A DNA stretch of 54,320 bases from IMG/VR virus record IMGVR_UViG_3300031673_000059, positions 1-54,320 of that record. One strand, 5' to 3'. How positions within the stretch are numbered: position 1 is the stretch's first letter; every line of letters begins with the position of its first letter. The stretch comes from a virus. The notes beneath the pieces were generated by a model, which was not told the origin of the DNA, did no database searches, and saw only the letters and a program-made list of their open reading frames with translations. The position numbers and the translations under genes are program-made. Positions 5,429 to 47,580 of this stretch are shown in pieces.

Positions 5429-6817
5429 TCAGACTCCAAAGAGCGCATGGAAGAAGCTCTTGGGCTGGTAGGCCTTCTTCTCGGGCTGCTTGGGCGTGAC
5501 CTTGACATTGGGCGAACTGGGACCACTCGACGGATCGAGTCGCAGCAGCTCATCACCGCTCATGGGGCCCCGAAGGAAGCTGTAGGCCCACCGGATCTTG
5601 GTCACAGCGTGCTCCCCGCTCTTCTTCAGGATCAGGAAGTGCCGCTGAGGAATCGACGTCAGGGTCGACGTGTCCACGTTCCGGCTGGAAAGCTCCTTCT
5701 TGAGGTCCCGGGCGCAGTCCCGGGGCCGCAGCTTGCCGAGGAACCAAGTGCCGACGTTGGTCAGCGCCTTGTAGTCCATGTCGTTAGGGTTCTGAGTCCC
5801 GATCAGCATACCGATGCCCTGGGCCCGGCCCTGAGCGAGGAGCGTGCAGATCGGCTTCTTGGTCGGCGGGTTGAGCGGGTAGGGCGGGAGGTAGCCCCGC
5901 GCCTCGTCCAAGACGACCAGCAGCTTCAGCTTGTTGCTGGCCGGCGCCCGGAACATGTAGTCCACGATCGCCGACAGCAGCATGCCAGCGAAGAACTGCC
6001 GCTCACCCTCGTCCAGGTGTCGGAGGGAGAACACCGAGACCTTAGGCTTGCCGGTGCCCACGTAGCTCTCGATCGAGAGCGGAGAACCGTCGAGCCACTT
6101 GGTCGCTTGCCGCCGGAAGCCGACGATCGACCGAGCGATCTGCATCCGCTTCTTCTTGGGGAAGAAGTCGTCGAGGCTCAGGCCATCGATCTCCTTCAGA
6201 TTGGCAGGGGGCGTGTTCAGAGCGGCGGACCACGTGTCCAGACCGGCCGCCTGACCCGAGGCCCAGGCGTCGACCATCACGTCCGTCAGGAAGACGTTCG
6301 CGGGGTCGGTCATGGGGTCGGCGGTGTGGCCGATCGCGTTGAGGACTCCGGCGACCAGGGCCGAGGCCCGGTCCCGCAGCGCTTGCTCACTGTAGTTGCC
6401 GGTGGGAGCGTCGAAGGACGCCAGGACGTTGACGGACTGGCCGCCGCCTCGGGTCTTGCCGGGGGCGTAGATCGTGACATCGGCGGCCGACTTCCACCGC
6501 TGGACGTTGGGAGCCAGGTGGCCGAGCTCCTTCCGAGCTCGGTCAGCGATCTCGCCCGGGTCCTTGCCGTCCTCCGCCCAGGGAGCGAATTCGCCGGCGG
6601 CCAGACCGGGGAAGGCCAGGGCCAGATTGGTGAGGTCGCCCTTGGGGTCAATGATGATCGCGGACGCGCCGCTCAGCACGGCCTCTTCGATCGTGGCGAC
6701 GGTGGCGCCGGTCTTGCCGGAGCCGGTCCGACCCAGGACCACGCCGTGGGTGGTAAGGTCGGCGGGGTCGATCGTGAGAGGAGTTCCGTCGTTCTTGGTG
6801 CCGATCAACATGCTCAT
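5429..6817 (-). CDS. HerA/FtsK-like P-loop ATPase (DUF87-type).
   Basis: Walker A GRTGSGKTG and Walker B LLVVLDEA. The start is placed at the internal ATG at 6817 (MSMLIGTK...) because the GGTAGAAA-N5-ATG start-associated motif precedes it. The ORF track begins at 6856. Confidence 0.75.
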   Translation of the reverse strand: MSMLIGTKNDGTPLTIDPADLTTHGVVLGRTGSGKTGATVATIEEAVLSGASAIIIDPKGDLTNLALAFPGLAAGEFAPWAEDGKDPGEIADRARKELGHLAPNVQRWKSAADVTIYAPGKTRGGGQSVNVLASFDAPTGNYSEQALRDRASALVAGVLNAIGHTADPMTDPANVFLTDVMVDAWASGQAAGLDTWSAALNTPPANLKEIDGLSLDDFFPKKKRMQIARSIVGFRRQATKWLDGSPLSIESYVGTGKPKVSVFSLRHLDEGERQFFAGMLLSAIVDYMFRAPASNKLKLLVVLDEARGYLPPYPLNPPTKKPICTLLAQGRAQGIGMLIGTQNPNDMDYKALTNVGTWFLGKLRPRDCARDLKKELSSRNVDTSTLTSIPQRHFLILKKSGEHAVTKIRWAYSFLRGPMSGDELLRLDPSSGPSSPNVKVTPKQPEKKAYQPKSFFHALFGV

Positions 6818-6909
6818 GGTTGTTTCTACCTTTCTTAGCCTTGTGGCTTCAACCACTACGCCGCCCTGCCACGATTCATCGAACTCGGGTATCAGTAAGC
6901 AGGTGACTT

Positions 6910-7440
6910 ATGAATCGATTCTTTGACGAACTGAAGGAGGCCCGTGACCAGGCCGCAGGCAAGAGTCGATTCAATCCCGACAAGAACCTTCGTCTCACCT
7001 ACGTAAGGGAAGAGCCCAAGGGGTGGCCGCTGACCAGGCCAGCTACTCCAGCCGAGTGGGCCCACGTCCTCAAGGTGATGATCATGCGGCGAGTTCCCAG
7101 GCATGAGCCTATTCATAGGACCAAGCTGATCCAATACGTAAGCGGCGACCTGGTGTCCGCAAGCTCCGCCGGAAGGCTCTACATGGGCCCGGAGTCGTGG
7201 GGCATGAGAAGCGTACATCTCGTGCTTGACCGACAGATGATCGGCAAGGACAAGATCCTGAGAACCGCTCCGACGATGGATGACCCGGAAATGGCCTGGA
7301 GTGCTCCTGCCATCTACAGGACCGAGCACGCTGATGGTTGGCTCGGGAGAGTGCCTGTTACCGTGAACGCCCTCGTAGACTTTCTCCCGGTGACCAACGT
7401 CCTAGATTTGATCGTACAGGCGCTCCTGGACGACGAATAG
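6910..7440 (+). CDS. Hypothetical protein.
   Basis: 176-aa ORF. Its composition is protein-like, unlike the antisense ORF 6892..7329. Confidence 0.5.
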   Translation: MNRFFDELKEARDQAAGKSRFNPDKNLRLTYVREEPKGWPLTRPATPAEWAHVLKVMIMRRVPRHEPIHRTKLIQYVSGDLVSASSAGRLYMGPESWGMRSVHLVLDRQMIGKDKILRTAPTMDDPEMAWSAPAIYRTEHADGWLGRVPVTVNALVDFLPVTNVLDLIVQALLDDE

Positions 7441-7644
7441 TAACTTCGCCGAACTGCACGATCGTTCTGGTTGTTTCGATGACCTGCCAGGATGATGCTG
7501 CAGGAAGAGATAGAACCTGTCCATTCACCGCGTCGAGTGCATCAGACTCCGTGTCGTAGTGGCCGCCTGAGCAGAGCATGTTGCCTCGCTCGCTAAAAAG
7601 CAGAAGCTCAAATCGCTTACGCGGATTAGACAAGGGTCACGCTC

Positions 7645-8076
7645 TCAGATGTCAGCTAATCGATCGAGGATGGTGGTCGTCTTGGCGATTGGTCTTGGAA
7701 CAGAGTCGGATACGAATAACGGTGAATCGAAGTTAACGGTCATGCCGCCCTCAGGCATTCGGCCGAAGGCCTCGGCCCGCCTGATCACTTGCTGGAGGTC
7801 CCACGCTATCTTGCCCCCTTTCGTAGGGCAACCAGAGATTCCGTGGGAGTGATTGGGGTGGGTGAGCTCGGGAAAGCACAGCTGCCGGGCCTTGTAGAGC
7901 GCATCTTCGCAGGACTTAGAAGCAGCACTGTCAGACAGCTTGTTCCAGAACTGCTCTTGAATGATGTTGAACTGGCCGATGTGAACCCGCGCGAATAGGT
8001 CGAGCGCCGTGACGACCAGCCTGGCCTGCTCCGGCGTCATTGTGACTTGGACGAAGAAGTTCTCGTTTCCGCTCAT
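7645..8076 (-). CDS. Hypothetical protein.
   Basis: 143-aa ORF with no recognised domain. Confidence 0.5.
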   Translation of the reverse strand: MSGNENFFVQVTMTPEQARLVVTALDLFARVHIGQFNIIQEQFWNKLSDSAASKSCEDALYKARQLCFPELTHPNHSHGISGCPTKGGKIAWDLQQVIRRAEAFGRMPEGGMTVNFDSPLFVSDSVPRPIAKTTTILDRLADI

Positions 8077-8125
8077 GGCGTTTTATACCGGACTGAACCC
8101 TCGCTTGTCCGGGTAGAAGAATCCC

Positions 8126-9958: not shown

Positions 9959-10771
9959 ATGAGGGTTCGAGAGCTTCTAATCCCACTAGTGATGCTGGGA
10001 ACGCCGGCTTTCGGACAATGCCGAGGGGCGGACGTCTCTCCTATCGAGTCGACCACTCCACCGCCCGAACCACCTAGAGCCCCAGACATCATCGAGTCTG
10101 TTATCCAGCCGACGATGACGATGACCACGAACGTGGCATTCGTGGTTGATACGTCTGGGTCTATGGACAATGATGGCCGGGTTGGCATGGCGCTTACTTT
10201 CGCCAGAGGGTTGATTGAGCGACCGACCGATCAGCTGATGATCGCTCTCCTGTCCTTCAAAGATTCACACATGAGGTGGCCCGGACTCACTGCCCAGGAG
10301 CGCGAGGCGGCTCGCATCGCCGGAACACTCCAGGCGGCCAGCTCGACTCCTCCTCCGAAGGGTTGGACCTACTTTCCAGGAGTCCCAGAGCTCGCGAGTG
10401 CTCAGGCATGGCTCACTGCGCGTGGGGCGAGCGGTGGCACAAACCCAGTCAGCGCGATCGCCGAGATCTTGTCCGAGAGCGTTAGAGATCTCACCGTCGT
10501 CCTGATCACTGATGGTGAGGACTTCGATGTTCCAGCCTTCAGATTGGCCGTGACCGCAGGCCAGGCAAGCAGAGTTCAGCGCGGTGTTGGTCGTGCGGTT
10601 ATTTTCGTTATCGGCACAGGAGGGGCCGCCGCGAATAAGCAGCATCTGCGTGATGTAGGAACGTCAGAGGGCGGCGGCCTCCACGTCATTCGTAGACCCG
10701 CCCCTCCGCCTCCACCCCAGAGGGCGCCGCAGATACCTGACCTAGATATGCCCTGGTCGCGTGACGACTAG
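9959..10771 (+). CDS. Secreted von Willebrand factor A (vWA) domain protein.
   Basis: MIDAS motif DTSGSMD. N-terminal signal-peptide-like MRVRELLIPLVMLGTPAFG. GGAGG lies 6 nt upstream of the ATG at 9959. Confidence 0.7.
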   Translation: MRVRELLIPLVMLGTPAFGQCRGADVSPIESTTPPPEPPRAPDIIESVIQPTMTMTTNVAFVVDTSGSMDNDGRVGMALTFARGLIERPTDQLMIALLSFKDSHMRWPGLTAQEREAARIAGTLQAASSTPPPKGWTYFPGVPELASAQAWLTARGASGGTNPVSAIAEILSESVRDLTVVLITDGEDFDVPAFRLAVTAGQASRVQRGVGRAVIFVIGTGGAAANKQHLRDVGTSEGGGLHVIRRPAPPPPPQRAPQIPDLDMPWSRDD

Positions 10772-11059: not shown

Positions 11060-11113
11060 CTATCGGAAGGGGCGACCTCAGGCGGCGGTATAATCACTCA
11101 TCCGGGAGTGTTC

Positions 11114-12987: not shown

Positions 12988-13554
12988 CTAGTTGTCCGCC
13001 GACACGACGTCCGTAGACGCCGTTGCGGTCGCAGCCTCGCTGCCTGCGTAGTAGCGAAGCCCCCTACGCTGACCCTCGGTTCGGATGTCACCGTTCTCCC
13101 GGGCAGAGTTCAGGATCCGACGGATCGTGCCCTGCGGAAGCTTGGTGTGGCCCTCGATGTCGGTCATGTTGCAGCCCTCGTTCTTCCGAACGAAGCCAAT
13201 GATCAGGTCAGGCCTGACCGGCTTTCGCTTGGTCGACTTCGCGACCGCTGGATTGGCCTTGCTGACCTTCTCCTGCCGCGTGGACTGCTTCTTGGTGACC
13301 TTCGGCTTCGAGGTCTTCTTGGTGACCTTCTTGGTGACCTTCGGCTTCGAGGCCTTCTTGGCGGCCGTCTTCTTCTTCTTGGCGGCCGTCTTCTTGGCGG
13401 CCTTCTGAGTGGTCACCCTGGGGGCTACCGCCTCCCCTAGCGCTACCGTCGTGGCCTTGTGGGCCACCCAGGTGTCGCCGACCCTGAAAGGCTTCACGCC
13501 CTGCGCCATCGCTGGCGTGATCGTGAAAACGACCGGTCCGCTCTGATTAGTCAT
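12988..13554 (-). CDS. Histone-H1/HupB-tail-like protein: Lys/Ala/Thr-rich repeats plus a C-terminal winged-helix-like domain.
   Basis: The repeat region reads AKKTAAKKKKTAAKKASKPKVTKKVTKKTSKPKVTKK. The C-terminal part reads GTIRRILNSARENGDIRTEG. GGAGGAAA lies 7 nt upstream of the ATG. Confidence 0.6.
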   Translation of the reverse strand: MTNQSGPVVFTITPAMAQGVKPFRVGDTWVAHKATTVALGEAVAPRVTTQKAAKKTAAKKKKTAAKKASKPKVTKKVTKKTSKPKVTKKQSTRQEKVSKANPAVAKSTKRKPVRPDLIIGFVRKNEGCNMTDIEGHTKLPQGTIRRILNSARENGDIRTEGQRRGLRYYAGSEAATATASTDVVSADN

Positions 13555-13825
13555 GAGAACACTTTCCTCCGTGTTGGATGGTGGTAACGATTACGGGACA
13601 GTTCAGTGTGGTCGGTGTAGGCGTATGGCGTGTCGTCCGATCAACATCGGATCCGCCTTTTGACTGAGTATTAACTGCCGTCACCGATGGTGACTCTACA
13701 CATCTGTTCCATGTCTCGCCACTAATACGGAAACGATTTCTCTCCGCAGCGCAGATTCCATCGGTCCTACAGGCGGCGGCCGATGATCGATGTGTATAAG
13801 TAGTTGCCATGGTGACAGGTTCGGG

Positions 13826-14347: not shown

Positions 14348-14852
14348 GGCCCCTCCATCCGTTCATTTGTGGATTTCAGCCTGATTCGAGCCTTTTATAC
14401 CTGATTTCTCTTTCGACGATCGCCTCCGATGCCCTAAATAAGTGGAAGATTCTACATGTCATTAGCAGGTGATGACTCGGCCAAGTCCAAGTAACGTAAC
14501 GTCTTAAAGAAAATCTCAGGAAAGCTTGATCCTCACTCTCAGATCCGTATAACAGGGGCACTCAGCGGTTGTTGGGTGTTGCGGGTTGCTTTCGGGCGGC
14601 GCGCAGTCGAGACCTGGGACGGACATCGACTTCGGTTGATGGAGAGAAGGGTCGAGGGCGACGACTTGTGGTCGGAGGTCATACTCTGCTGCAGGAGACG
14701 GGCTCCTCAAGGGTGAGTCTCTTGAAGGCGGCGCCGAGTGGAGGCGACAACTAGCCGAACGGGTAATGCCGTCGGCGGGTGCAGCAGACCTTGTTTCCAG
14801 CCACTCTAGGGCGGGCAGAGCAGGGACGAAGACAACCGGCGGGACACGAAGA

Positions 14853-14892
14853 GGGCGGAGCAGGGAGACCTGTTCCGCCCTTCTTCACATCC
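14853..14892 (+). terminator. Rho-independent-like terminator. Stem GGGCGGA/TCCGCCC, 14-nt loop, followed by TTCTTCA.
   Basis: Read directly. It lies in the 640-bp intergenic region about 95 nt upstream of the tail-fibre ATG. Confidence 0.5.
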
Positions 14893-14983
14893 ACCACGCT
14901 GACTCCGCTTTGCCTAACTCCCGTGAGTCTGATAGCATCATGATCTATACTGATGCAGGGCTTATCAGTCTCAGGGGTGATCG

Positions 14984-16636: not shown

Positions 16637-16692
16637 GAGCGGCCTCCAGGTGTCTGTAGGCTACATCATTAGGCGGGTAGGTAGAATAGGGT

Positions 16693-17058
16693 ATGAAGAC
16701 CGGCGCGAGGAAGGCAGTCGTCCGTAAGCTACGGAAGATGGTGAACCGGCATATCGGCAACATGGTCGATGAGAAGTTCGAAATGGGCTGCCTGGCGGCA
16801 AGTCTGTTCCCGGACTGGGTTGAGAGCGACTACTCCACCTTTGATCTTTACCTGTTCCACGGCTGTGGAATCCCATGGAACATCGCCAGTCGCCTGGAGA
16901 CGATGGCTCACACCTACTACGAGATTCCATCTCTTCAGATTTGGATGCAGGTGGGATACACAAGAGCCGCCCAAGCAGCCGGACAAGGCCGAGAGGGCCA
17001 AATCCGAGCGCTGCTTGAAAGCGGCTCTAATGTGCTAGACGTGATGACGTTGATCTAG
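16693..17058 (+). CDS. Hypothetical protein.
   Basis: 121-aa ORF. GGTAGAAT lies 5 nt upstream of the ATG. Confidence 0.55.
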   Translation: MKTGARKAVVRKLRKMVNRHIGNMVDEKFEMGCLAASLFPDWVESDYSTFDLYLFHGCGIPWNIASRLETMAHTYYEIPSLQIWMQVGYTRAAQAAGQGREGQIRALLESGSNVLDVMTLI

Positions 17059-18140
17059 ACGGCGATCGGCGCTTCGGTGCAGACCGTGGTGAGGATCCTG
17101 GTGCAGACCCGGTAGGGGTCGCAGTTGGCTCCGGGTCGCCGATCTTCGATGTAGCCGTAGCCCTGCTGGGCTACCTGGGCGGGGATGCGGATCGAGCAGC
17201 CGCGATCACTGTCACCGACCTTGAACGTGTTGATGTCGCACGTCTCGTGCTTGCCGGTCAGGCGCTTCTCCAGGCCGAAGCCGTAGTCTGCGATGTGCTC
17301 GGCGTGGACCTCCGACATCGCCTTGACCGCCGCCGCGATAGCCGACTTGCCGGTGCCTGGGTCTCGCATCTCCTTCGTGGAGAAGTTTGTGTGAGCGCCC
17401 GCACCGTTCCAGTCGCCTTGCTCAGGCTTGCAGTTGAGGGTGGCCGAGATGCCGTAGTCCTCGCCGATCCGGAACAGGAGCCAACGCGCAAAGATCAGGT
17501 GATCTGCGACTGTGAGAGGGTCGGCTGACTCGCCCGGGAACCCAGGACGATGACCGATCTGGAACTCCCACTGACCCAGCATGACTTCGGCATTGATGCC
17601 GTAGATCATCAGCCCGGCCCTCATGCAGGCGCTGAGGTGATCCTCGACCAGCTTGCGGCCCGCAACCTCGTCAGCTCCGACGCCGCAGTAGTAGGGTCCC
17701 TGAGCGCGCTGCGGGAGTCCCTTCTCCGGCCATCCAAGGGGGCGGCCAGTGTCTAGGTTGTAGAGCGTGTACTCCTGCTCGAAGCCGAACCAGGGATCGT
17801 GGTCCTCAGCGACCGACATGATGTCCCGCAGACGGCTGCGAGTGTTGGTCTTGTGCGGCATGTCGTCTGGAGTGGTGACCTCGCACAGGACCAGGAAGTT
17901 GGCGCCGCCGCGAATCGGGTCGTTGACGACGCGAACCGGGGTGAGCACCTGGTCTGAGTTGGACGTCCCCGCCTGATTGGTCGACGAGCCGTCGAAACCC
18001 CAGACCGGAAAGGACGTGTAGTCGATGACGCCCTTCTGATCATCGGGTAGATAGACCACACGGGTCTTCGACCGAAGGTTCTGGACAGGGATGTCGGCGG
18101 ATCCGCCGTCCATCCAGATGTATTCAGCTCGTACGTGCAT
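17055..18140 (-). CDS. glnII: Glutamine synthetase type II (eukaryote-like GSII).
   Basis: EYIWMDGGS N-terminus, GPYYCGVG, NAEVMLGQWEFQIG, DWNGAGAHTNFST and CSIRIP are hallmark GSII motifs. Length is 361 aa. RBS AGGAAGGG. Confidence 0.85.
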   Translation of the reverse strand: MHVRAEYIWMDGGSADIPVQNLRSKTRVVYLPDDQKGVIDYTSFPVWGFDGSSTNQAGTSNSDQVLTPVRVVNDPIRGGANFLVLCEVTTPDDMPHKTNTRSRLRDIMSVAEDHDPWFGFEQEYTLYNLDTGRPLGWPEKGLPQRAQGPYYCGVGADEVAGRKLVEDHLSACMRAGLMIYGINAEVMLGQWEFQIGHRPGFPGESADPLTVADHLIFARWLLFRIGEDYGISATLNCKPEQGDWNGAGAHTNFSTKEMRDPGTGKSAIAAAVKAMSEVHAEHIADYGFGLEKRLTGKHETCDINTFKVGDSDRGCSIRIPAQVAQQGYGYIEDRRPGANCDPYRVCTRILTTVCTEAPIAV

Positions 18141-18429: not shown

Positions 18430-19611
18430 CTAGTCTATTGATCCGACGATCCGATCGAGCACACCGACCATGTCGAGCATTGTCCCTAGGTATTCGATCG
18501 CCTTGTCTTTCCCCCAGGCGTGGAGCAGACACTCCCTCTCCTTGGGGCCGCCCTTGCAGGTTACCCCGTCCTTCTCGCCGAGCGCCTTGACTACGCTCGA
18601 ATCGAACGCCTCGTTGTTCTTCCTCTGCATCTTGATGTTGATGACCCTCTTCCGAGGGCCGATGGTGATGGTGTAGTCGCCGTAGGCGATGGCGTACCAA
18701 GGCTCGTTTTTGAACTGGTCCTTGTAGTAGCCGTTGGGGAGCTCCGTCCTCGTCTTGTTGGCCAGTCCGACCGCCTCGAAGATCTCGTTGAAGAGCTTGG
18801 CGTGCCGGAGCTTGATCGGGTCGACCGGGACCTCGATTTCCTGACTCCGCCCTGCGTCCACCGCCTCCCAGGTCCACTCGCCGTCGACCTTGTTCTGGAT
18901 CCAGACGCTGACCTCATCGCCGGGAACCTGGGGAGGGATAGGGGACGCAGGGTGCCCAGTCTGGTACCAGGACTTCTTGCCGGCCGCCGCGTGGGCTTCG
19001 AGCGCGTCTAGGATCTCCTGGGAGTGTCTCTTTACCTCGTAGAGGGCGTTCTCGGCCATGTTCTTGAGAACTGCCATCCGGTCGATGGCGTCAGGGGCGT
19101 CCATCATGCCCCATTCCGAGCCCGGGTCTGACACCCGCCTCTTCCAGTTGGGCTCCCACTGACCGATGGTTTTCAGGAGGCCGAGGAGCAGAGGACCCTT
19201 CTTGGGCTCGGCTACCCCGCCATCGAGAAGCGGAAAGACCAGCATCCCGATCGGGCCTCCGGCTCCGAGTTCGGCCAGCCTAGCGACAGCAGTGTTCCGA
19301 TCTGCCTCAGGGGTCAAGGGGGTGACAAGCGCTCTGAGCTGAGAGACCTCTTCGTCGAAGGCGGCCTTGTTGGCCCGCCAGGTCTTGAGGACCGTGCCGT
19401 TGAACCAGTCGGCCACCCTCTCGGAGAGACCCTCGCCCGGCTTCCGCATGAGCATGAAGAGGTTCCCGCCGTCGGCGGCCATATGGACCCCGAACCGGTC
19501 GCAGCCCTTGCACTTGAAGTTGCTCTGCGACATCCCGCCGAAGGAACCACCGTGACCCTGCCACTTAGGCGCGGCGCAGATACAGGACGGTACGTTCTCT
19601 GGCAACGCCAT
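18430..19611 (-). CDS. Hypothetical protein of 393 aa.
   Basis: Long ORF in an operon. Its ATG overlaps the TAA of the NADAR gene (TAATG). Confidence 0.65.
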   Translation of the reverse strand: MALPENVPSCICAAPKWQGHGGSFGGMSQSNFKCKGCDRFGVHMAADGGNLFMLMRKPGEGLSERVADWFNGTVLKTWRANKAAFDEEVSQLRALVTPLTPEADRNTAVARLAELGAGGPIGMLVFPLLDGGVAEPKKGPLLLGLLKTIGQWEPNWKRRVSDPGSEWGMMDAPDAIDRMAVLKNMAENALYEVKRHSQEILDALEAHAAAGKKSWYQTGHPASPIPPQVPGDEVSVWIQNKVDGEWTWEAVDAGRSQEIEVPVDPIKLRHAKLFNEIFEAVGLANKTRTELPNGYYKDQFKNEPWYAIAYGDYTITIGPRKRVINIKMQRKNNEAFDSSVVKALGEKDGVTCKGGPKERECLLHAWGKDKAIEYLGTMLDMVGVLDRIVGSID

Positions 19612-20048
19612 TAGGGCATCTCCATGATCTCTGCTCTGATATCCATCAAAATGCGGCCCAAGTGATTTTCTCCCTCACCCTCACAGACCCCCCAAAAGGT
19701 GTCGCGCCAAGAGTTTCCTTCGACCAGGTGCTGTCGTCCGGTCAGGATCAACTTCTCTCTGAGTCCAGGGTTCTCGAACTTCTTCCGCAGGATCCCTTTC
19801 ATCGTAGCGAGCTTGCAGATCCGCTCATTCTTGGTCCAGCCCTTAGACAGGGTGACCTTCTGGCCCAATCGCTTAGCCTTGCCGCAGGACTTGGCCTCCC
19901 TGATCTCTCGCCTTTGCTCAGGATCATCAGTCTTGGCGGCCTGATAGGCATGCTCTGAAGATGGATAAACGTCCCCCTGCCACTCGATGTCGATCATGTG
20001 GAAGTTGGAGAGCCAGCGGTATTCGCCTTTGAAGTCGGTGATGCTCAC
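19611..20048 (-). CDS. NADAR (YbiA/DUF1768) domain protein.
   Basis: YRWLSNFH...SSEHAYQAAK...LILTG...WGVC matches NADAR family motifs. The GTG start at 20048 overlaps the upstream TGA (GTGA). Confidence 0.75.
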   Translation of the reverse strand: MSITDFKGEYRWLSNFHMIDIEWQGDVYPSSEHAYQAAKTDDPEQRREIREAKSCGKAKRLGQKVTLSKGWTKNERICKLATMKGILRKKFENPGLREKLILTGRQHLVEGNSWRDTFWGVCEGEGENHLGRILMDIRAEIMEMP

Positions 20049-21509: not shown

Positions 21510-21565
21510 AGCGTCTTTTACCCGTCGATCGACACAGATACGAGGTAAACAAGTCTTAGGAACAG

Positions 21566-27352: not shown

Positions 27353-27380
27353 GTCTGGGTTTTACCGGGTAGAACATGGT

Positions 27381-28723: not shown

Positions 28724-28798
28724 ATTCACCGCATGGACCGCTCGGGGCCTCGCAGAAATAGGGGACACAGAGATCGACTCTCCTGGGTAAGAGAGAGT

Positions 28799-30828: not shown

Positions 30829-30918
30829 ACAACTCCTCCGAGTACCACAGGGTAAATCAAATCCTTCCTCCGTGGCAGCAACGCGGTTAAAAACGACACG
30901 GTGACTAAGGCCGGTGCG

Positions 30919-31161: not shown

Positions 31162-31196
31162 AAGCACTTCTACCGCGTTCGGAGGTAGAACCAGTC

Positions 31197-32808: not shown

Positions 32809-33128
32809 TGACCGAGCCTGAGAAATACGACTACACGACGCCGGCCGTGGTGAAGAAGATTCTGACCCCTGGCATGGCTCTGGACATCACGTTGGAGCAG
32901 GCTCAAGAGGCCATCAAGGATCTCGCGAAGGCGCTCCAGGACACGCGTGAGCGTTACACCGCTCTGGAGTACAAGCACCACAAGGCTATGTCCGATGTCG
33001 AGATCCGGCTGGCGCAGGCACGGGGGCAGAAGCCCGACCAGCCGAAGTATCAGGACGGCATTCGCTATGCCTCCGAGACCCCCCGTCCCATGGGCCCGGA
33101 CGGTTTCCCGCAGCGAGGCATCGTCTAG
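32808..33128 (+). CDS. Hypothetical protein.
   Basis: MTEPEKYDY... TGATG overlap with the upstream gene. Confidence 0.5.
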   Translation: MTEPEKYDYTTPAVVKKILTPGMALDITLEQAQEAIKDLAKALQDTRERYTALEYKHHKAMSDVEIRLAQARGQKPDQPKYQDGIRYASETPRPMGPDGFPQRGIV

Positions 33129-33146
33129 CGCCGGGTAGAACACGGT

Positions 33147-33485
33147 ATGAGAGAGCCCCCGTACGACAAGATCGAGCTGATAGACCTCAAGCCGTGCCCG
33201 TTTTGCGGTCATACGCAGCGGGGAGTGGAGCCGAACACTAGGGTCCGGATCATGTTCGTCGGTATGGCCGTCTACGTACAGTGTGGGCGCTGTCGTGCGA
33301 TAGGGTCTAGTGTAGGGATACCGGGCCACATTGATGAGCTTGGTGCGTTTATGGATATGGTTGCCGACGTAGACATCTTCGGCCTCCCGTCAAACCCTCG
33401 GGCATTCAACGACTGTGAACTCGATCTCTGGATGTCGCAGCTCGCCGCCAAGTTCTGGAACAACCGAAAGCCCCAGCGAGCGTGA
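33147..33485 (+). CDS. Lar-like restriction-alleviation / zinc-ribbon protein.
   Basis: LKPCPFCGHTQ...VQCGRCRAIG. CCGGGTAGAAC-N5-ATG. Confidence 0.5.
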   Translation: MREPPYDKIELIDLKPCPFCGHTQRGVEPNTRVRIMFVGMAVYVQCGRCRAIGSSVGIPGHIDELGAFMDMVADVDIFGLPSNPRAFNDCELDLWMSQLAAKFWNNRKPQRA

Positions 33486-33703
33486 TGGACCACCACGCAC
33501 TGCTCTATTCCCACGCTGTCGTCCAGGCCGCCCGGGTCGGTCTGCCTCTGCACTGGGAGGAAGACATCATGACCTTCACCGCCCCGGGGCATGACGACTG
33601 GATCATCGGTTGGTGCCCCAACACCTTCAATCAGCTGCGGATCAAGGTGATGAGGTTTCACCAACCTGAGGACGCCTACCCGGACATCAAGCGGGAGTGT
33701 TGA
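33482..33703 (+). CDS. Hypothetical protein.
   Basis: 73-aa ORF. It is followed in frame by a 46-codon protein-like extension after the TGA (see findings). Confidence 0.5.
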   Translation: MMDHHALLYSHAVVQAARVGLPLHWEEDIMTFTAPGHDDWIIGWCPNTFNQLRIKVMRFHQPEDAYPDIKREC

Positions 33704-33840
33704 ACCTACGACTGGGAGGTGGGCGCCAGGCTGGTTGCCCAACTGATCGCGTCCAAGGACCCACTAGGGCTGGTCGAGTCGTGGGAGACGCCGGACAACT
33801 GCGAGCTGCCAGGATATGGCCGGGTGCGGATCGACAACGT

Positions 33841-34806
33841 CTAGTAGGGCGTTCCGGCCAACGTGATCAGAGATGCGAACTCCGGCCTCACGAGTGTGAT
33901 TTTGTGCCGGGTGCGGATCGCGCGCCGAAGAGTCTTGTCGGCCGGATCTACGAAGTTCGGTGTGATCTCGACCATGGTGTAAGGACTGTAGATGACGCAC
34001 GTATCCATTACGCTGTCGTCTGCCTGATACCAGGCCAGCAGCTTCCCTACGGGGAAGAGGGGATCCAGGTAGACGCCCCTGCCGTCAACCTCGCCGATTT
34101 TGGCGATGCCGTCTGCCTCTTGGACGTCAAAGCCAAGCTGGGCCAGCATCGCCGCGTTGCCAATGACCCTGTTTGCCGGGTTCCGCTGAGACCCCCGATG
34201 GACGATGTGGGCCGCCCTGTCCAGAGCTTCTTTGAGATCACCGCCGGCGGCCAACTCGATCTTGTTGTTGTCCAGGACGCCGTTCAGGATCGTTCCTACG
34301 ATCTCCCGAGCCACCTCGGTCAGGAGTGCGTCGATGTTCAGAGCCCCCTCTTCGTTGACGTCGGTGTGTGCCTTGCAGCGCCTCGACTCCGCTCGGATCT
34401 CTTGAGGGATGATGTCCAGCACGACGGAAGGCACCTTGACCTTCCTCTCGACGCCGTCTTGAATCAGGGTCGCCTCCTCCATCTCCCCGAAGCGCGGCTT
34501 GTAGTAGTAGACGATCCCGATCGGCCCAGTCATCGGCTGCACCGCGCAGAGGTCCGGGAGCACGTGGGTCCGGACCGAGGCCTTGAGGTTATCGAAGAGA
34601 TCCTCCGTCCACGAGCCGAGGACCAATGCCCGGGTCTCCTCGACGAGACGCTGAAGGTGTCTGCTCTGGTTCTCGCAGACCATGGCAGCGATGTTCGACC
34701 TGTAGCCGTCCTCTAGGCCCCACTTGGTGCGGAGCTTCTCTAGATAGCTCTCGTCCGGCATACCATCAAGCTGAGTCATAGTTCCTCCTGATGCGGAGGG
34801 TACCAC
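33841..34806 (-). CDS. T4 gp24-like capsid vertex protein (paralog of 34825..35778).
   Basis: KLRTKWGL...AMVCENQ, VQPMTGPIGIV, NPANRVIGNAAMLAQLG and YLDPLFP...VIYSPY match conserved T4 gp23/gp24 blocks (KW..L.G...A.I..FENQ; CGVQPM..P.G; N.I..S.N....L; Y.D....YYAPY). Confidence 0.6.
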   Translation of the reverse strand: MVPSASGGTMTQLDGMPDESYLEKLRTKWGLEDGYRSNIAAMVCENQSRHLQRLVEETRALVLGSWTEDLFDNLKASVRTHVLPDLCAVQPMTGPIGIVYYYKPRFGEMEEATLIQDGVERKVKVPSVVLDIIPQEIRAESRRCKAHTDVNEEGALNIDALLTEVAREIVGTILNGVLDNNKIELAAGGDLKEALDRAAHIVHRGSQRNPANRVIGNAAMLAQLGFDVQEADGIAKIGEVDGRGVYLDPLFPVGKLLAWYQADDSVMDTCVIYSPYTMVEITPNFVDPADKTLRRAIRTRHKITLVRPEFASLITLAGTPY

Positions 34807-34824: not shown

Positions 34825-35778
34825 TCAGACAATCTGCGCCAACCGCTCCAGGACGTTGACCTTAACCACCTGGATGTGGCTCGGATGGGCCACATGGATG
34901 TTGTGGTTCAGGTAGATCGCGAAGTTGTGGCGGCCGTCCATCGGATCGAGCGGGTAGCAGAAGGGCGAGTAGACGACCGGCGTGTCTACGATGCTTGGTC
35001 CCATGTACCAGAGCATTACTTCACCGTCAGGGAACAGCGGATCCAGGTAGACGTGCATCCTCTGCTTGTAGACGCCTACCTTCTTCACCAGGCCGGTATC
35101 AGTCGTGTCCCACTCGTCCGGATCCTCCGGCGAGAAAAGCTCCAACATCTTCTCATTGCCGATCACGTGATTGGCCGGGCCCCGCATGCAGCGCTTGTGG
35201 ACCATCTGCGAGGCGCGAAGGATATCAGTGTCGAACGCGGTGTAGGTCGACTCCAACACATTGCCGGCGGCCGATCCCGCGCCGTGCATGACGCCCAACA
35301 CCTCGCGGATGGACGCCAGCATGACCGAGTCGAACACGCTGTCGATGAGCGCGAAGTTTCCTGGGTAGATCCTGACGCCGAGTCGCCTGATGGAGGCTTG
35401 GACGTTGACCGTCTGCAGGTTCAACGTCATCGTCGGGATCGATGTGCTCCCAGGAGTAGTGGGTCCGGCCGGCGTGGTGATGTTGGTTTGGCCGTAGAAG
35501 CCGATGGTGTCTGATGGCCTCCGTAGGGGCTGGACCGACACCATGTCGATCAGGGGGCAGTGCACCCAGGCCTTCACGAGAGCTCGGTAGAACTTGTCCT
35601 TCCAGTTGTCGCCATAGGTCTCTTCCAGATCATCGGGGATCAGCGATGAGCAAAGGACGTTGGCCTGGTTCTCCAACAGTAGAGCGATGACGCCAGAGCG
35701 CTTGTGATGGCCGGGGAGGTAACCCTCCCACTTCTCGGTCAGAGCCTTGATGTGGTCGTTGTCCAACATGGTGGGCAT
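34825..35778 (-). CDS. T4 gp23-like major capsid protein (short form).
   Basis: LTEKWEGYL...ALLLENQ, VQPLRRPSDTIGFYG, GPANHVIGNEKML and YLDPLFPDGEVMLWY...VVYSPF. Paralog of the adjacent gene. Confidence 0.6.
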   Translation of the reverse strand: MPTMLDNDHIKALTEKWEGYLPGHHKRSGVIALLLENQANVLCSSLIPDDLEETYGDNWKDKFYRALVKAWVHCPLIDMVSVQPLRRPSDTIGFYGQTNITTPAGPTTPGSTSIPTMTLNLQTVNVQASIRRLGVRIYPGNFALIDSVFDSVMLASIREVLGVMHGAGSAAGNVLESTYTAFDTDILRASQMVHKRCMRGPANHVIGNEKMLELFSPEDPDEWDTTDTGLVKKVGVYKQRMHVYLDPLFPDGEVMLWYMGPSIVDTPVVYSPFCYPLDPMDGRHNFAIYLNHNIHVAHPSHIQVVKVNVLERLAQIV

Positions 35779-35803
35779 AGTACCACAAGCCCACCCAAGG
35801 TCA

Positions 35804-37825: not shown

Positions 37826-38214
37826 GCTTCCTTCTTACTGCCGGACATCGACATGAGGAAGATGAGACCGACCGGCAGGGACAGCCCAATACCAAGGCCC
37901 GCGATCAGTCCGCCGAAGCCTCCGACGCCGTATCCGATGCCCATCGAGACTAGAACCACGACCAGCGCGACACCGATAAAGGCGCAACAGGCGAGGGCAC
38001 CTTCACCGTTCGACTCAGGCTTGCCCCAACCGCACCGATCACAGTGCTGCTCCATGATCCTCCACGAGACCGAGAAGGTGCAGTTCGGGCACTTCTTGTG
38101 ATCGGTCTTGGGCTTGTCCTTGGGCTTGTTGGCCTGAGTGTTCTCCGTGTTCTGATACCGCCGGTTCCCGGCGGTGTCGTCGTGGAGCCAACCATCAGAT
38201 CCTCGGTACTTCAT
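37822..38214 (-). CDS. Membrane protein: N-terminal zinc ribbon plus C-terminal Gly-zipper TM helices.
   Basis: CPNCTF...CDRCGW followed by IGVALVVVLVSMGIGYGVGGFGGLIAGLGIGL. Confidence 0.5.
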   Translation of the reverse strand: MKYRGSDGWLHDDTAGNRRYQNTENTQANKPKDKPKTDHKKCPNCTFSVSWRIMEQHCDRCGWGKPESNGEGALACCAFIGVALVVVLVSMGIGYGVGGFGGLIAGLGIGLSLPVGLIFLMSMSGSKKEA

Positions 38215-38657
38215 CCCTGCTCCACCCTCACCAGGAACGGCGGCCGGTACGTGGGGAACACCGACCGGACCCAGTGATCCCAGTGGGTGTTCTCCCAGTC
38301 GTAGTCATCGACGATCCGGGGCTCGTTCTGGTAGTTGATGACGCCTACCTGGAGGCAGCTGGGATCGGTCAGCTTCTTGCCGGCGGCCCTCTTCCAGTAG
38401 GCTACTACCAGAGCGTCAGCATACCTAGTGCCCTGGTCGGGTCGAGTGCTCATGTCGATACCGACGATGACCTCCTCGGACTCGCCCAGCTTGTTCCAGA
38501 AGTGCTGGACCAAGTCCGGCACCTCAACTGCCATGGCGTGGACCTGTAGTCCACCGTCCTTGTCCATCGAGATCATCTGGTGAGGGTAGACTCCTTCCTC
38601 ATCGATCGCGATCTTGACCATGCCCATAAACGTCTCGGGGAGCGTCTCGCTCATGCT
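38211..38657 (-). CDS. Hypothetical protein.
   Basis: MSETLPETF... ATGA overlap with the upstream gene. Confidence 0.5.
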   Translation of the reverse strand, partial: SMSETLPETFMGMVKIAIDEEGVYPHQMISMDKDGGLQVHAMAVEVPDLVQHFWNKLGESEEVIVGIDMSTRPDQGTRYADALVVAYWKRAAGKKLTDPSCLQVGVINYQNEPRIVDDYDWENTHWDHWVRSVFPTYRPPFLVRVEQG

Positions 38658-40502: not shown

Positions 40503-40562
40503 CCTAGTGTAGTGCGCAGGCTTCCTTTTACCCTATCGGCCGAATTCGGTATAACAAACCCC

Positions 40563-41814: not shown

Positions 41815-41870
41815 CGTCTACTCCTTGTCCCAACTAGTAATAACGCATGAGCTTAGTGATTCGGAACCAA

Positions 41871-41894
41871 GTACACGAGAAATATCTCGTGTAC
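41871..41894. promoter_or_regulatory. Perfect 24-bp palindrome GTACACGAGA-AATA-TCTCGTGTAC, followed by the tandem direct repeat GATAGCTC x2 (41896..41911).
   Basis: Read directly. It lies in a divergent intergenic region and shares the GTGTAC core with the left-end array and the CTTGTGTAC sites. Confidence 0.6.
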
Positions 41895-41963
41895 CGATAG
41901 CTCGATAGCTCGGAGCCACATCACAGGTATAAGAAACCACCAACCTGCAATGGAGAATAAAGA

Positions 41964-43098: not shown

Positions 43099-43407
43099 GT
43101 GGACGTCGACGCAGTTCGCAGAGCAGCAAGCGAGCCATGCGCAGCTTCCCTGACGTCTTGTTCAGAGTGCAAGGGTTCAGGGGAGTGTACTGCTGATGTG
43201 AATGACATTGGTGACTGCAAGAAGTGTGGCTGGTCAGCAGAGAACCACTGGGGCGGATCGCGGCGGTGCACTTCTTGTTTTGGCTGGGGCACAGAGACAG
43301 AGTATCCTTGCTGGCAGTACATCAACGACACGCCTGACCTTTGGTGCGACTCCTGTAAGGCGCAGCCGCCCGAAGTGACGGACGAGCAGTTCTACGAGGA
43401 GCATTAG
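43099..43407 (+). CDS. Small Cys-rich protein.
   Basis: CSECKGSGEC...CKKCGW...CTSCFGWG...CDSCK. Confidence 0.5.
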   Translation: MDVDAVRRAASEPCAASLTSCSECKGSGECTADVNDIGDCKKCGWSAENHWGGSRRCTSCFGWGTETEYPCWQYINDTPDLWCDSCKAQPPEVTDEQFYEEH

Positions 43408-44108
43408 TGGCATCAACTCGCGAGACGACGGGTGAACAGCAGGTTCCGGACATCGTCTGGGATCTGCCTCACTTCCAAAGCTGGCTGCAGGCCCAGAAAG
43501 GCGCCGGAAACAGGCTCGACGGGTTCAAGCCTGTTTTCCTCTTCCCTGCCGGGGGAAAGCCTTTCTTTTGGGCAGCCCACGTCAACGTCTACGTGGCATC
43601 CGAGAACCGGAACAAGGTCAACGAGGTGGTTATCTCTCGGCCGGACATCATGCACATCGTCCTGCTCCACAAGCCACTCAGGCTGAGTGACAAGATCAGG
43701 GCGGTGATGGTGCGGGAGTTCCGCTCGCCGGCGGCCACACCGAACGGGTTCATTCTGGAGACTCCCGGCGGAAGCTCGCTCAAGGGCGAGGACCCGCTGA
43801 CCATCGCTTCACAGGAGCTCGAAGAGGAGACCGGCATGGTCATCAGTCCAGATCGGCTAGTGCCCCTTGGGGCTAGGCAGCTGATGGGGACGATGTCTGC
43901 TCACAAGGCTCACGTCTACGCCGCATTGCTCAATGACCAGGACATGGACAGAGCATTGGCAGAGGCTGGGAAGACGCACGGCAACGAGGGCGACTCGGAG
44001 CGAACCTTCGTCGAGGTGCACGACGTTGGCATGCTCGTGCGTGAGCCCACCACCGACTGGGCTACGCTGGGTATGATCTACGCGGCGGCCGAAGCGCTCG
44101 GAATCTAA
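43407..44108 (+). CDS. Nudix hydrolase (ADP-ribose pyrophosphatase-like).
   Basis: Nudix box GGSSLKGEDPLTIASQELEEETG. Confidence 0.7.
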   Translation: MASTRETTGEQQVPDIVWDLPHFQSWLQAQKGAGNRLDGFKPVFLFPAGGKPFFWAAHVNVYVASENRNKVNEVVISRPDIMHIVLLHKPLRLSDKIRAVMVREFRSPAATPNGFILETPGGSSLKGEDPLTIASQELEEETGMVISPDRLVPLGARQLMGTMSAHKAHVYAALLNDQDMDRALAEAGKTHGNEGDSERTFVEVHDVGMLVREPTTDWATLGMIYAAAEALGI

Positions 44109-44149
44109 TCCATCTCCTTGTGCCCCATGGTGGGGTACAGACGTCCGTT

Positions 44150-44190
44150 GAAGAGGCCGGGACCGCAACCCCGGCCTCTTCGCTTGTACT
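44150..44190 (+). terminator. Strong hairpin terminator. 12-bp perfect stem GAAGAGGCCGGG/CCCGGCCTCTTC with an 8-nt loop.
   Basis: Read directly. It lies after the Nudix gene stop. The next gene has its own TAGAAC start motif. Confidence 0.6.
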
Positions 44191-46029: not shown

Positions 46030-46076
46030 ACCTGATCTCCAGGGCAGCTGGACATCAGTAGGATAGCATCGTAAAC

Positions 46077-46820
46077 CTAGTTATCGAAGGCGATGACGAT
46101 TCTCACCTGATCCGGCGGTCCGAGAGCCACCAGCGAGGGGATCACGTCCACAAAGTTCTGGACGACGTCCCGGTAGGTCCTGGGCAGGGTGAGGGCCACG
46201 TAGGGTCCCAGCTGTTGGTAACCCCCGCCCAGACGGCACTTGCGTCGCCTGACCAGCTTCTTGGTCGTGTTGCTCAGTAGCAGCAGAAGCATCTCATCCT
46301 CGGTCACCTCTCTGTGGACGGCCACCAGGTCCTTGTGCCACATCGCCCGGCCGGTGACGTATTGCTCCTCCTCCAGCCTGGAAGGGAGCTTCCCGGTGTC
46401 CTTCCACTCAAGGTATTGGTTGGCGAATAGCGCCATTTTCTCGTGAAAGCAGACCGTGTCCCAGTCAGCGTCGAGGAGCTCCTGGACCGTGAAATGGGTG
46501 TGGGAGTGATACTCGTGGCTCTCGGCGTCAAGGGCTTTCAAGGTCGCCTTCGCGGCGTCTTCTGGAAAGCCCCGATTAGCGAATAACGCATCAACTGATC
46601 TCCATCGAACGCCGGCCAGGACTCCGAACAGAGCGTAGTTCCTCTCAGAAAGTTCGTTCAGATAGTCCGGCCATTCAGCCAGCCACTCGTCGTAAGGGAC
46701 ATCCTCACCTCTGTCCTCTCGACGACGACGGCTGGACCGGCGGCCATCCTTCGAGTCACGGAGCCCCCACCGGCCGTTTCGGCCCTTCACCTCGATCACA
46801 GGATGCGCGTCGGTTCCCAT
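46077..46820 (-). CDS. Hypothetical protein.
   Basis: The start is at 46820 (MGTDAHP...), preceded by GGTAGAAC-N5. Confidence 0.55.
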   Translation of the reverse strand: MGTDAHPVIEVKGRNGRWGLRDSKDGRRSSRRRREDRGEDVPYDEWLAEWPDYLNELSERNYALFGVLAGVRWRSVDALFANRGFPEDAAKATLKALDAESHEYHSHTHFTVQELLDADWDTVCFHEKMALFANQYLEWKDTGKLPSRLEEEQYVTGRAMWHKDLVAVHREVTEDEMLLLLLSNTTKKLVRRRKCRLGGGYQQLGPYVALTLPRTYRDVVQNFVDVIPSLVALGPPDQVRIVIAFDN

Positions 46821-46884
46821 GTTTAGTTCTACCTTCGATGAATCGCTGTTGGTCGCTCGTTGGTTCTGAAAGGTAGAAGAACGT

Positions 46885-47580
46885 ATGACGCACCTGTCTG
46901 ACAAGGAAAAGGAAGAGCACCTCAAGCTCGTCCTGGACGAACTCCCTCCCGAGTTCAAGAAGCTGGCCGATCTCCGGTCCTACGGACCCCAGTTGCGGGT
47001 CAGCCATGCAACGGTCGAGGTCGAACACGACTGGTACAGCAAAGCCAACACGATGAAGCTGTCCTTCAGTTACAACGTCCTGGACGAAGAAGGCGTCGGG
47101 GCTAAGAATCGATCGTGGAAGCAGCGAGGTCGAGACAACAAGTTCTGCTACGACCGATGCGCCGCACACATCGTCGATGTGCTCACCAAGTATGAAGCTC
47201 TTCAAAAGCGGCGGCGACAGGGCGATTCCATCGCCAAGAAGCGGGGCGAGGTCCTCAAGGAGGCCTTCAGGAGCGACCCTCTGCTCGGCGGCCTGGATCT
47301 TGAAGTCCAGACTAGTACCACTCCACGGACGGAGTCCGGGTCGGTAGACGTCGAAATCCGGGGCAAGGACTATTGCGGCTCCAACGCTTCGTTGAAGTTC
47401 GACGGCGAGGCCTTTCACGGCCAGGTGGACGTCTACGGGCTCTCGGCTGAGCAAGTGGCGGCCCTGATGGTTGTCGTAAGACTCGACAAGCTGGGTGTGC
47501 TCGACCTGATCGCGCTCTCTGACGACTCGATCCTCGGTGCATCCATCCGAAAACTGACCGAAGGGCTTAACAACGCATGA
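46885..47580 (+). CDS. Hypothetical protein.
   Basis: GGTAGAAG-N5-ATG. Confidence 0.55.
   Translation: MTHLSDKEKEEHLKLVLDELPPEFKKLADLRSYGPQLRVSHATVEVEHDWYSKANTMKLSFSYNVLDEEGVGAKNRSWKQRGRDNKFCYDRCAAHIVDVLTKYEALQKRRRQGDSIAKKRGEVLKEAFRSDPLLGGLDLEVQTSTTPRTESGSVDVEIRGKDYCGSNASLKFDGEAFHGQVDVYGLSAEQVAALMVVVRLDKLGVLDLIALSDDSILGASIRKLTEGLNNA

Follow-up and report, generated by a model that had tools for sequence, protein, structure and literature searches.

A short GGTA(G/T/A)AA element as the probable promoter of leaderless mRNAs in a lineage of large tailed phages

We analysed a 54,320-nt stretch of viral DNA (positions 1 to 54,320 of IMG/VR virus record IMGVR_UViG_3300031673_000059; hereafter the window), which comes from a large tailed phage, and found that the heptamer GGTA(G/T/A)AA lies 5-8 nt before 19 of 85 gene starts, about a fifth, and that all 19 of these starts are ATG. 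Judging from the sequence, we consider it probable (roughly three chances in four) that the heptamer is a promoter that gives leaderless mRNAs at these starts; we infer both where the transcripts start and that the heptamer acts in transcription. An earlier sequence-only reading had pointed to a start-associated hexamer of the TAGAAN type, usually preceded by GG, at 12 or more gene starts. The window is 60% guanine plus cytosine (GC) and 90% coding (10.3% non-coding), with about 85 mostly small genes called and frequent strand switches, and it covers about one quarter of the genome, whose size we put at roughly 200 kb from a relative of 203,521 bp. The strategy of leaderless expression is known and the sequence form GGTA(G/T/A)AA is previously unreported; a literature search for the string GGTAGAA returned primer noise only.

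To see how far the heptamer departs from expectation, we compared its counts with those in dinucleotide shuffles. GGTAGAA occurs 17 times in the window as compared to 3.3 expected, and GGTAGAA-N6-ATG occurs nine times as compared to 0.04 expected, so the original claim of a start-associated motif was, if anything, too modest. When the fifth position is left free (GGTANAA-N6-ATG), there are 14 occurrences as compared to 0.11 expected, and each of the 14 stands at the start of an open reading frame (ORF) with a positive coding score. The spacer between GGTA[AGT]AA and ATG is 6 nt in 14 cases, 7 nt in three, and 5 nt and 8 nt in one each, and no GTG or TTG stands 5-8 nt after it. Our start calling favoured ATG and the motif, and this raw histogram of spacers is free of that bias. 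Counted from the end of the hexamer, the gap is 5 bp in 14 of the 19 sites, 6 in three, 4 in one and 7 in one. At the sites that the sequence-only reading had listed it is 5 nt, with 6 at 8126 and 4 at 39259. Of 33 heptamers in total, 27 are found in the non-coding 10.3% of the window (binomial p ~1e-21), and 26 non-coding copies could be aligned pointing toward a downstream gene.

The 12 sites and four related forms listed by the sequence-only reading are all present as described. Its list was incomplete, however: it lacked five leaderless-type sites, at 8076(-), 21509(-), 24187(-), 26084(-) and 27352(-), seven leadered copies and an extra tandem copy upstream of the 51067 site. It had also drawn attention to two near-identical 20-mers, and we found these as CCGGGTAGAACATGGTATGA at 27366 and CCGGGTAGAACACGGTATGA at 33132, the second one base away from the position 33131 given for it. 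A repeat or duplication artefact is rejected, as the near-identical 20-mers precede unrelated proteins and their identity ends at ATGA. Chance and base composition are ruled out by the dinucleotide shuffles, and so is a general feature of phage or metagenome DNA, as 67 unrelated ligase-linked phage loci gave seven single hits, which is the background level.

To place the motif within the gene layout, we sorted the genes by their upstream neighbourhood. Of the 26 genes at divergent junctions, 13 are preceded by the leaderless-type motif, as are 6 of the 26 co-directional genes whose upstream gap is at least 15 nt; none of the 33 tightly coupled genes has it. There are five back-to-back divergent pairs with 1-38 bp between the heptamers (8083/8112, 27360/27368, 31168/31184, 40526/40548 and 46827/46872). 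The heptamer at 39265 is the only one upstream of a minus-strand run of co-directional genes from 39259 to 33841, which contains both gp23-like capsid paralogues and a previously uncalled ATGA-coupled gene (38211-38654), and we read this run as one operon. A terminator-like hairpin with a 13-bp stem lies at 44149-44182, and the heptamer at 44227 starts 45 nt downstream of it. The starts that follow the motif also differ from the others in kind: all 19 are ATG, as compared to 48 ATG, 17 GTG and one TTG among the other genes (Fisher p=0.009), and a 5-mer Shine-Dalgarno (SD) sequence is found at 2 of 19 motif starts as compared to 34 of 66 other starts (p=0.0014).

The heptamer is not always next to a start codon. 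At seven starts with an SD of their own a strict copy stands 19-75 nt upstream, and three variants stand at 10-15 nt. Because strict copies and variants alike precede genes with their own SD, the heptamer appears as an element independent of the start codon. These data suggest a simple scheme, in which GGTA(G/T/A)AA would be the core, and apparently the only, promoter element of the lineage, an asymmetric, -10-like element with no -35 partner. The heptamer would nucleate DNA opening, and initiation would take place at a purine 7 nt after its last A. Where an ATG stands 6 nt downstream (range 5-8), RNA polymerase would begin on the A of this codon or at most 1-2 nt away, and the resulting mRNA would have no ribosome-binding site, so that its 5'-terminal AUG would be recognised directly by the leaderless route. 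The same heptamer placed 19-75 nt upstream would give an ordinary leadered mRNA with its own SD.

To find out whether the element is kept in relatives, we searched with the ATPase encoded from 6817(-), which gave ten distinct related contigs, one of 203 kb that was retrieved two times, as L068 and as L069, and nine short ones from metagenomes. The identity of their ATPases to that of the window is 68-88% and their GC contents range from 0.40 to 0.61; synteny between L068 and the window is kept over about 15 kb. Eight relatives include the ATPase start and seven of them keep the heptamer, as GGTAGAA in four cases and as GGCAGAA (L069), GGTAAAA and GGTAAGA in one case each, while the eighth (L074) keeps an upstream copy that has diverged and has gained a GGTATTA 6 nt ahead of its ATG. 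Across the ATPase orthologues the spacer is 5-7 nt long and free in sequence, and the sole invariant upstream columns are AAGG.A. The divergent partner of this site, GGGTATC (GATACCC on the opposite strand), is kept in seven of the eight. Among orthologues of gene 8076, GGTATAA and GGTAGAA interchange, which indicates that G and T at position 5 are variants of one element rather than separate classes. Gene 8126 of the window and its orthologues in L075 and L076 have the leaderless arrangement, the orthologues in L068 and L072 have an SD and a leader of 20-30 nt, and all five keep GGTAGAA. The leadered promoters of the helicase and of the gene with an FGE-sulfatase domain are likewise conserved in relatives. 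When we pooled the relatives (54.9 kb in total), leaderless-type patterns numbered 16 as compared to 0.31 in shuffles, and heptamers numbered 31 as compared to 8.3. The element is thereby conserved among the ten contigs, with spacers and flanks that vary. A further contig, L079, is the same phage and reaches 2.3 kb past the window end, where it carries three more sites, including another back-to-back pair; as these lie beyond the window, they are an out-of-sample confirmation of the motif. Taken together, these data indicate that the motif is characteristic of the phage lineage.

To describe the anatomy of the element, we aligned 26 gene-oriented sites. These had been picked by GGTA.AA, so G, G, T, A, A and A are invariant by selection. 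Position 5 of the heptamer is G in 12 sites, T in nine and A in five. The base after the heptamer is A in three sites, C in ten, G in 11 and T in two (C or G in 21 of 26; 0.15 bit), and the second base after it is A in 15 of 26. Upstream of the heptamer, from 45 nt out, no position exceeds 0.39 bit, and there is neither a -35 nor a TGn; no further conserved promoter element was found within 45 nt upstream or downstream. Written as an 8-mer, GGTADAAS (D, A, G or T; S, C or G), the element occupies -13 to -6 when counted from the A of the ATG.

Several observations weigh against a promoter at these starts. The last hexamer position is T in only 2 of 26 sites, though every primary-sigma -10 has T(-7), and the A of ATG is the sixth base after TADAAN, which is one base short of the usual sigma-70 arrangement. 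Six heptamers are intragenic, four of them antisense. We found no sigma or RNA polymerase gene among 60 window proteins screened against Pfam and/or PHROGs, and none among five proteins from 14.6-21.3 kb of L068, a region mostly beyond the window start. GAAAGG or GGAGGT overlaps the heptamer at 6817, 31197, 44240 and 46885, and this stretch, partly complementary to the 16S rRNA 3' end, could pair with it if it is transcribed. Finally, two sites sit in very short co-directional gaps, at 33147 (18 nt) and 39259 (24 nt), where read-through transcripts would include the motif.

The last two of these points, together with the fixed distance to the ATG, the ATG-only starts and the missing SD, are what one would expect if GGUAGAA in a 5' untranslated region (UTR) were an RNA-level translation signal that replaces the SD and is recognised by the ribosome or by some factor of phage or host. 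The start-associated sequences (SAS) of certain phages likewise lie 3-7 bp from mostly ATG starts (PMC3203893). The sequence-only reading had kept such a phage-specific translation signal as its alternative, and we disfavour it; it is the least probable of the explanations considered here. The heptamer itself, read directly, has no GGAG or GAGG core and so no complementarity to the anti-SD, as had been noted. It is present at none of the 33 tightly coupled internal genes, although these would have the greatest need of a translation signal, and is concentrated at divergent junctions instead. The copies 19-75 nt upstream of SD-bearing starts mean that it is not always beside a start, and orthologues swap between leaderless and leadered forms while keeping the heptamer. 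The back-to-back pairs, with only 1-38 bp between them, leave no space for an upstream promoter outside the neighbouring gene.

A short, asymmetric and highly conserved motif at the heads of transcription units might also be the site of a phage regulator, an activator site or an operator half-site beside weak promoters that we did not recognise. T4 middle promoters, for instance, combine an activator box with a -10 element, and the window encodes winged-helix/MarR-like and helix-turn-helix proteins at 12988-13554(-), 3-1046(-) and 1362-1757(-). We regard this as very unlikely: the alignment holds no other conserved promoter element within 45 nt on either side of the heptamer, and a scan of 20 kb for the canonical sigma-70 consensus gave one promoter as compared to 4.4 expected, so such promoters are not enriched. 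Moreover, a strict 6-nt distance to an SD-less ATG calls for an element that determines the start site rather than a distal site, and the heptamer has the TA and the A-rich core typical of DNA-melting elements. The proposal that transcripts begin at or next to the ATG from a -10-like promoter remains the best supported, by the location of the sites, the missing SD, the ATG-only starts, the leadered copies and the conservation.

Which factor would read this promoter is a separate question. One form of the promoter reading takes the element for an ordinary -10 (TANNNT) of the primary sigma of a host that is actinobacterial or resembles Deinococcus. Some features fit this: the hexamer has the TA at positions 1-2 and the A-rich positions 4-5 of that class, the helicase promoter has GGTATAAT, and with it a perfect TATAAT, in three genomes, and leaderless genes with a -10 at 6-7 bp before the ORF are common in Deinococcus-Thermus. 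In the test of the primary-sigma hexamer, T(-12) and A(-11) are invariant in 26 of 26 sites, but they were selected by GGTA.AA. The remaining features weigh against it. The hexamer had been described as TANNNT-like, and its last position is mostly C or G (21 of 26 sites); GG, invariant in the GGTA.AA-selected set, takes the place of TGn; the spacing is one base shorter than in Deinococcus, off the mode yet inside the range known for the choice of start site; and the same odd features recur in relatives of 40-61% GC, which a specificity borne by the phage explains better than shared host machinery. The -35 elements that, if any, would have had to lie inside the neighbouring genes find no counterpart in the alignment or the sigma-70 scan, and nothing ties the phage to actinobacteria. 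The element is therefore not a canonical primary-sigma -10, since T(-7), TGn and -35 are all absent, and we think it unlikely that the host primary sigma reads it. For the same reason we favour a phage-encoded or non-primary specificity factor, a proposition for which we see about even odds. Two other promoter types were considered and rejected, an archaeal TATA box with B recognition element (BRE), as nothing is conserved ~26 nt upstream of the ATG, and promoters of sigma-B/sigma-F or of extracytoplasmic function (ECF) sigma factors, as there is no -35 partner.

More tentatively, and with somewhat less than even chances, this lineage of ~200-kb phages may carry its own specificity factor (gp55-like or another sigma, or an RNA polymerase) that reads GGTADAA(S) and starts on AUG. 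The screened proteins of the window, about a quarter of the ~200-kb genome, include no gp55, gp33 or gp45, and no split beta/beta' polymerase subunits were found in the window or in L068 14.6-21.3 kb. A word without the hallmarks of primary-sigma promoters points to a separate specificity factor, for which the complete genome could be searched with success. If the lineage does have its own factor, leaderless mRNAs would account for the expression of at least a fifth of the genes, the structural operon among them, phage expression could be free of host sigma and of SD-dependent initiation, and the programme would have been kept across relatives of very different GC and probably different hosts. 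To our knowledge, leaderless expression in phages has been documented experimentally in few systems only, and a lineage-wide case is therefore of interest. One minimal promoter word would here serve both leaderless and SD-led expression in a large environmental phage. The motif also supplies an annotation rule for this phage group, because it fixes start codons (the ATPase at 6817, the kinase at 27381) and delimits transcription units, and a 7-bp promoter without a -35 is compact and may serve as a genetic part.

Table 1. Heptamer copies, variants and other features of the window.
Feature	Position	Strand	Context
GGTAGAA	6824..6830	(-)	6 nt before ATG 6817, HerA/FtsK-like ATPase; divergent partner of 6888 site
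GGTATAA	8083..8089	(-)	6 nt before ATG 8076; orthologue spacers 6-7 nt
GGTAGAA	8112..8118	(+)	7 nt before ATG 8126; back-to-back with 8083-8089 site
GGTAGAA(T)	16680..16686	(+)	6 nt before ATG 16693; divergent junction
GGTAAAA	21516..21522	(-)	6 nt before ATG 21509
GGTATAA	24194..24200	(-)	6 nt before ATG 24187, ATP-dependent DNA ligase
GGTAAAA	26091..26097	(-)	6 nt before ATG 26084
GGTAAAA	27360..27366	(-)	7 nt before ATG 27352; 1 bp from heptamer 27368
GGTAGAA	27368..27374	(+)	6 nt before ATG 27381, P-loop kinase; Pfam domain from residue 4 of that start
GGTAAGA (degenerate)	28786..28792	(+)	6 nt before ATG 28799 (NUDIX); start ambiguous, alternative ATG 28733
GGTAGAA	31168..31174	(-)	6 nt before ATG 31161; back-to-back, 9 bp between heptamers
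GGTAGAA	31184..31190	(+)	6 nt before ATG 31197; partner of 31168 site
GGTAGAA	33134..33140	(+)	6 nt before ATG 33147; in 18-nt co-directional gap
GGTAGAA	39265..39271	(-)	5 nt before ATG 39259
GGTATAA	40548..40554	(+)	8 nt before ATG 40563 (154-aa ORF, coding score +32); back-to-back with 40526
GGTAGAA	44227..44233	(+)	6 nt before ATG 44240; 45 nt downstream of hairpin 44149-44182
GGTAGAA	46827..46833	(-)	6 nt before ATG 46820; public gene call on L079 has same start (247 aa)
GGTAGAA	46872..46878	(+)	6 nt before ATG 46885; back-to-back with 46827 site
GGTATAA	50465..50471	(+)	7 nt before ATG 50479
GGTATAA	51054..51060	(+)	6 nt before ATG 51067; tandem GGTAGAA copy upstream at 51025-51031
GGTAGAA, leadered	1786..1792	(-)	28 nt upstream of ATG 1757; SD-like GGGG/AGGT
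GGTAAAA, leadered	5420..5426	(-)	19 nt upstream of ATG 5400; SD AGGAG; kept in L068, L072, L073
GGTATAA(T) = GGTATAAT, leadered	11087..11093	(+)	20 nt upstream of helicase ATG 11114; SD GGAG; kept in L068, L072
GGTATAA, leadered	14395..14401	(-)	47 nt upstream of ATG 14347; SD GGAGG
GGTAAAA, leadered	40526..40532	(-)	~75 nt upstream of likely DHH-protein start 40450; SD GAGGT
GGTATAA, leadered	41926..41932	(+)	31 nt upstream of ATG 41964; SD GGAG
GGTATAA, leadered	51357..51363	(+)	61 nt upstream of GTG 51425 (vault-protein-like); SD AGGAGG
GGTATCA, variant, leadered	6888..6894	(+)	15 nt before ATG 6910; SD AGGTGA
GGTAAAC, variant, leadered	21544..21550	(+)	15 nt before ATG 21566; divergent partner of 21516 site
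GGTATAC, variant	48885..48891	(+)	10 nt before ATG 48902; GTAAGCAG common to it and 6910 leader
TTGTGTAC, exact copy	48392-48399	(+)	
TTGTGTAC, exact copy	49741-49748	(-)	
TTGTGTAC, exact copy	50018-50025	(+)	
TTGTGTAC, exact copy	50097-50104	(+)	
TTGTGTAC, exact copy	51002-51009	(+)	
HerA/FtsK-like ATPase	start 6817	(-)	recognisable product
DHH-family protein	likely start 40450	(-)	recognisable product
Major-vault-protein-like protein	51425-54320	(+)	recognisable product
Two tandem gp23-family capsid-like proteins	33841-34779; 34825-35778	(-)	recognisable products
Tail-collar-domain protein			recognisable product
ATP-dependent DNA ligase and DEAD-box helicase			recognisable products
Two NUDIX, NADAR, nucleoside deoxyribosyltransferase-like and glutamine-synthetase-like proteins			recognisable products

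Other sequence signals accompany the sites in Table 1. GTGGTAC occurs on the minus strand at 30842-30848, 34800-34806 and 35780-35786, just upstream of the starts 30828, 34779 and 35778, with a marginal enrichment overall (7 as compared to 3.4 expected); we considered it as a second promoter class, and either chance or a weak variant of the GGTA element could account for it. The word CCCGTAATC at 13589-13595(-) lies ~30 nt upstream of the MarR-like gene 13554(-) and is conserved at ~355-365 of L068 with different flanks; as CGTAATC it may be one more variant of the promoter. Gene 41964 has, ~30 nt upstream of its GGTATAA promoter, a perfect inverted repeat, GTACACGAGA-N4-TCTCGTGTAC (41865-41894), that may be an operator. 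The five exact copies of TTGTGTAC are all intergenic and fall within 2.6 kb; there is a one-mismatch copy at 48786, and L079 has an exact copy at ~11240, directly after a terminator-like hairpin behind the vault-like gene. CTTGTAC follows the hairpin at 44149-44182. TTGTGTAC may be a termination, processing or operator signal. Within the 636-nt gene-free gap 14348-14983, an ORF-free, G-rich stretch at 14545-14925(+) folds far better than shuffles (-175 kcal/mol, z = -3.8), with a CGTATAA word (14546-14552) at its start and a long GC-rich hairpin near its 3' end. It had no Rfam match at threshold (best RAGATH-31, 26 bits as compared to 72 needed), and is a candidate phage non-coding RNA. The window as a whole holds no known RNA family at the Rfam gathering threshold and no tRNAs.

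Cultured phages gave no megablast match with window positions 26000-34000 and no tblastn match with the ATPase. With the capsid-like protein, tblastn reached 22-27% identity at best, to huge metagenomic phages and a Flavobacterium phage. The nearest relative is the 203,521-bp IMG/VR contig, Ga0210057_1000066 / IMGVR_UViG_3300025150_000002, with an ATPase 79% identical. The 46885 protein, the kinase and the capsid-like protein, each scanned against IMG/VR, gave no matches, nor did scans of genome-collection contigs for the host or closer relatives. By exact look-ups with two window proteins, five public samples hold the same phage, namely JGI 3300031578 and 3300031669, ENA ERZ27256847 and ERZ27256810, and SRR8554505; the ligase protein gave no record in such a look-up.

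The two tandem capsid-like proteins, each ~315 aa, have their match to the T4 gp23 major-capsid family in its C-terminal part and are far shorter than gp23 itself. The vault-like protein has the highest coding score in the window, contains a major-vault-protein shoulder domain (E = 1.6e-22) and has a weak, sub-threshold Vault_3 repeat match (22.3 bits as compared to a cut-off of 28.8). It is complete in L079 (8251-11190), where it is 979 aa long; the gene is unusual for a phage, and the genome collection gave no relative. Glutamine-synthetase-like, NADAR, DUF3841, P-loop kinase, two NUDIX and nucleoside 2-deoxyribosyltransferase-like genes form a set (17055-18140(-), 19611-20177(-), 21566-22423(+), 27381-28121(+), 28799-29254(+), 29855-30370(-) and 43407-44108(+)) that suggests modification of nucleotides or of DNA bases; this could be relevant to the way the promoter is recognised. 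At 9959-10771(+), in an otherwise apparent 876-nt gap, lies an ORF with a von Willebrand factor A domain, and its codon usage is atypical (coding score about -5 under the window's own model). The DEAD-box helicase of the window is uninterrupted; its orthologue in the 203-kb relative (L068 993-5449) matches in three pieces with insertions of ~1.2-1.4 kb between them, which could be inteins or introns, and the DnaB-like helicase of that relative (L068 16893-19520) has an intein with a LAGLIDADG domain.

Among known elements, the -10 of sigma-B/sigma-F-type promoters is GGGTAT and that of the sigma-W type is CGTATA, and these sigma factors need a conserved -35 (GTTT or TGAAAC). The heptamer shares their G-rich prefix before TA, many sites here being GGGTA, and differs in having no -35. 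In Deinococcus radiodurans, -10 motifs 6-7 bp before ORFs give leaderless mRNAs (PMC12340547), and leaderless promoters of Deinococcus-Thermus and Actinobacteria have a TANNNT -10 directly upstream of the ORF (PMC12340547; PMC4633059). The likeness is a -10-like element a few bases before an SD-less start, which in the present phage too is probably a promoter and not a ribosome-binding site, and which aids start annotation; those promoters, however, have a conserved final T, a 6-7 bp gap and the primary sigma, whereas here the final base is mostly C or G, GG is invariant and the gap is mostly 5 bp.

The SAS of Cluster K mycobacteriophages and Cluster EF Microbacterium phages are 13 bp long, have an AGGAG SD core and occupy ribosome-binding positions (PMC3203893; PMC7302621). 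They resemble the heptamer in that one phage group has a conserved, asymmetric word lying a few bases ahead of starts that are mostly ATG. The heptamer differs in that it is 7 bp long without an SD core, is absent from the 33 coupled internal genes and also stands far upstream of SD-led starts. The virion-polymerase promoters of phiKZ and phiR1-37 start 6 nt after their consensus (PMC5312081), and phiKZ and AR9 share with the present phage a short, lineage-specific consensus without a -35 near the start and many small divergent transcription units in a large genome (PMC5312081, PMC8244752). In contrast to the leaderless transcripts proposed here, their promoters are AT-rich, their UTRs are 26-491 nt long and no leaderless transcript was detected in phiKZ.

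Most middle and late mRNAs of Thermus phage phiYS40 are leaderless, according to a published summary (Sevostyanova et al. 2007, summarised in PMC3594737). Like phiYS40 as summarised there, this would be a large phage in which many genes, late ones among them, have leaderless mRNAs behind a common motif. phiYS40 is cultured, with mapped 5' ends and reported IF2/IF3 changes, whereas the present lineage is uncultivated, has another motif and would also make leadered transcripts; there is no sequence relationship between the two, as the megablast search and the tblastn searches with the ATPase and the capsid-like protein indicate. An 8-mer without a -35, the T4 late promoter TATAAATA occupies -13 to -6 and is read by gp55 with gp33 and gp45 (PMC1524935). 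It differs from GGTADAAS in sequence, the latter containing G, and T4 late mRNAs have leaders; nor is the motif restricted to late genes, since it precedes the ligase, helicase, kinase and ATPase as well as the capsid run. Nevertheless, GGTADAAS is likewise an 8-bp element without a -35, it would lie in the same register of -13 to -6 if +1 is the A of the ATG, as we propose, it has TA at the same two positions, and the window that carries it encodes gp23-family capsid paralogues.

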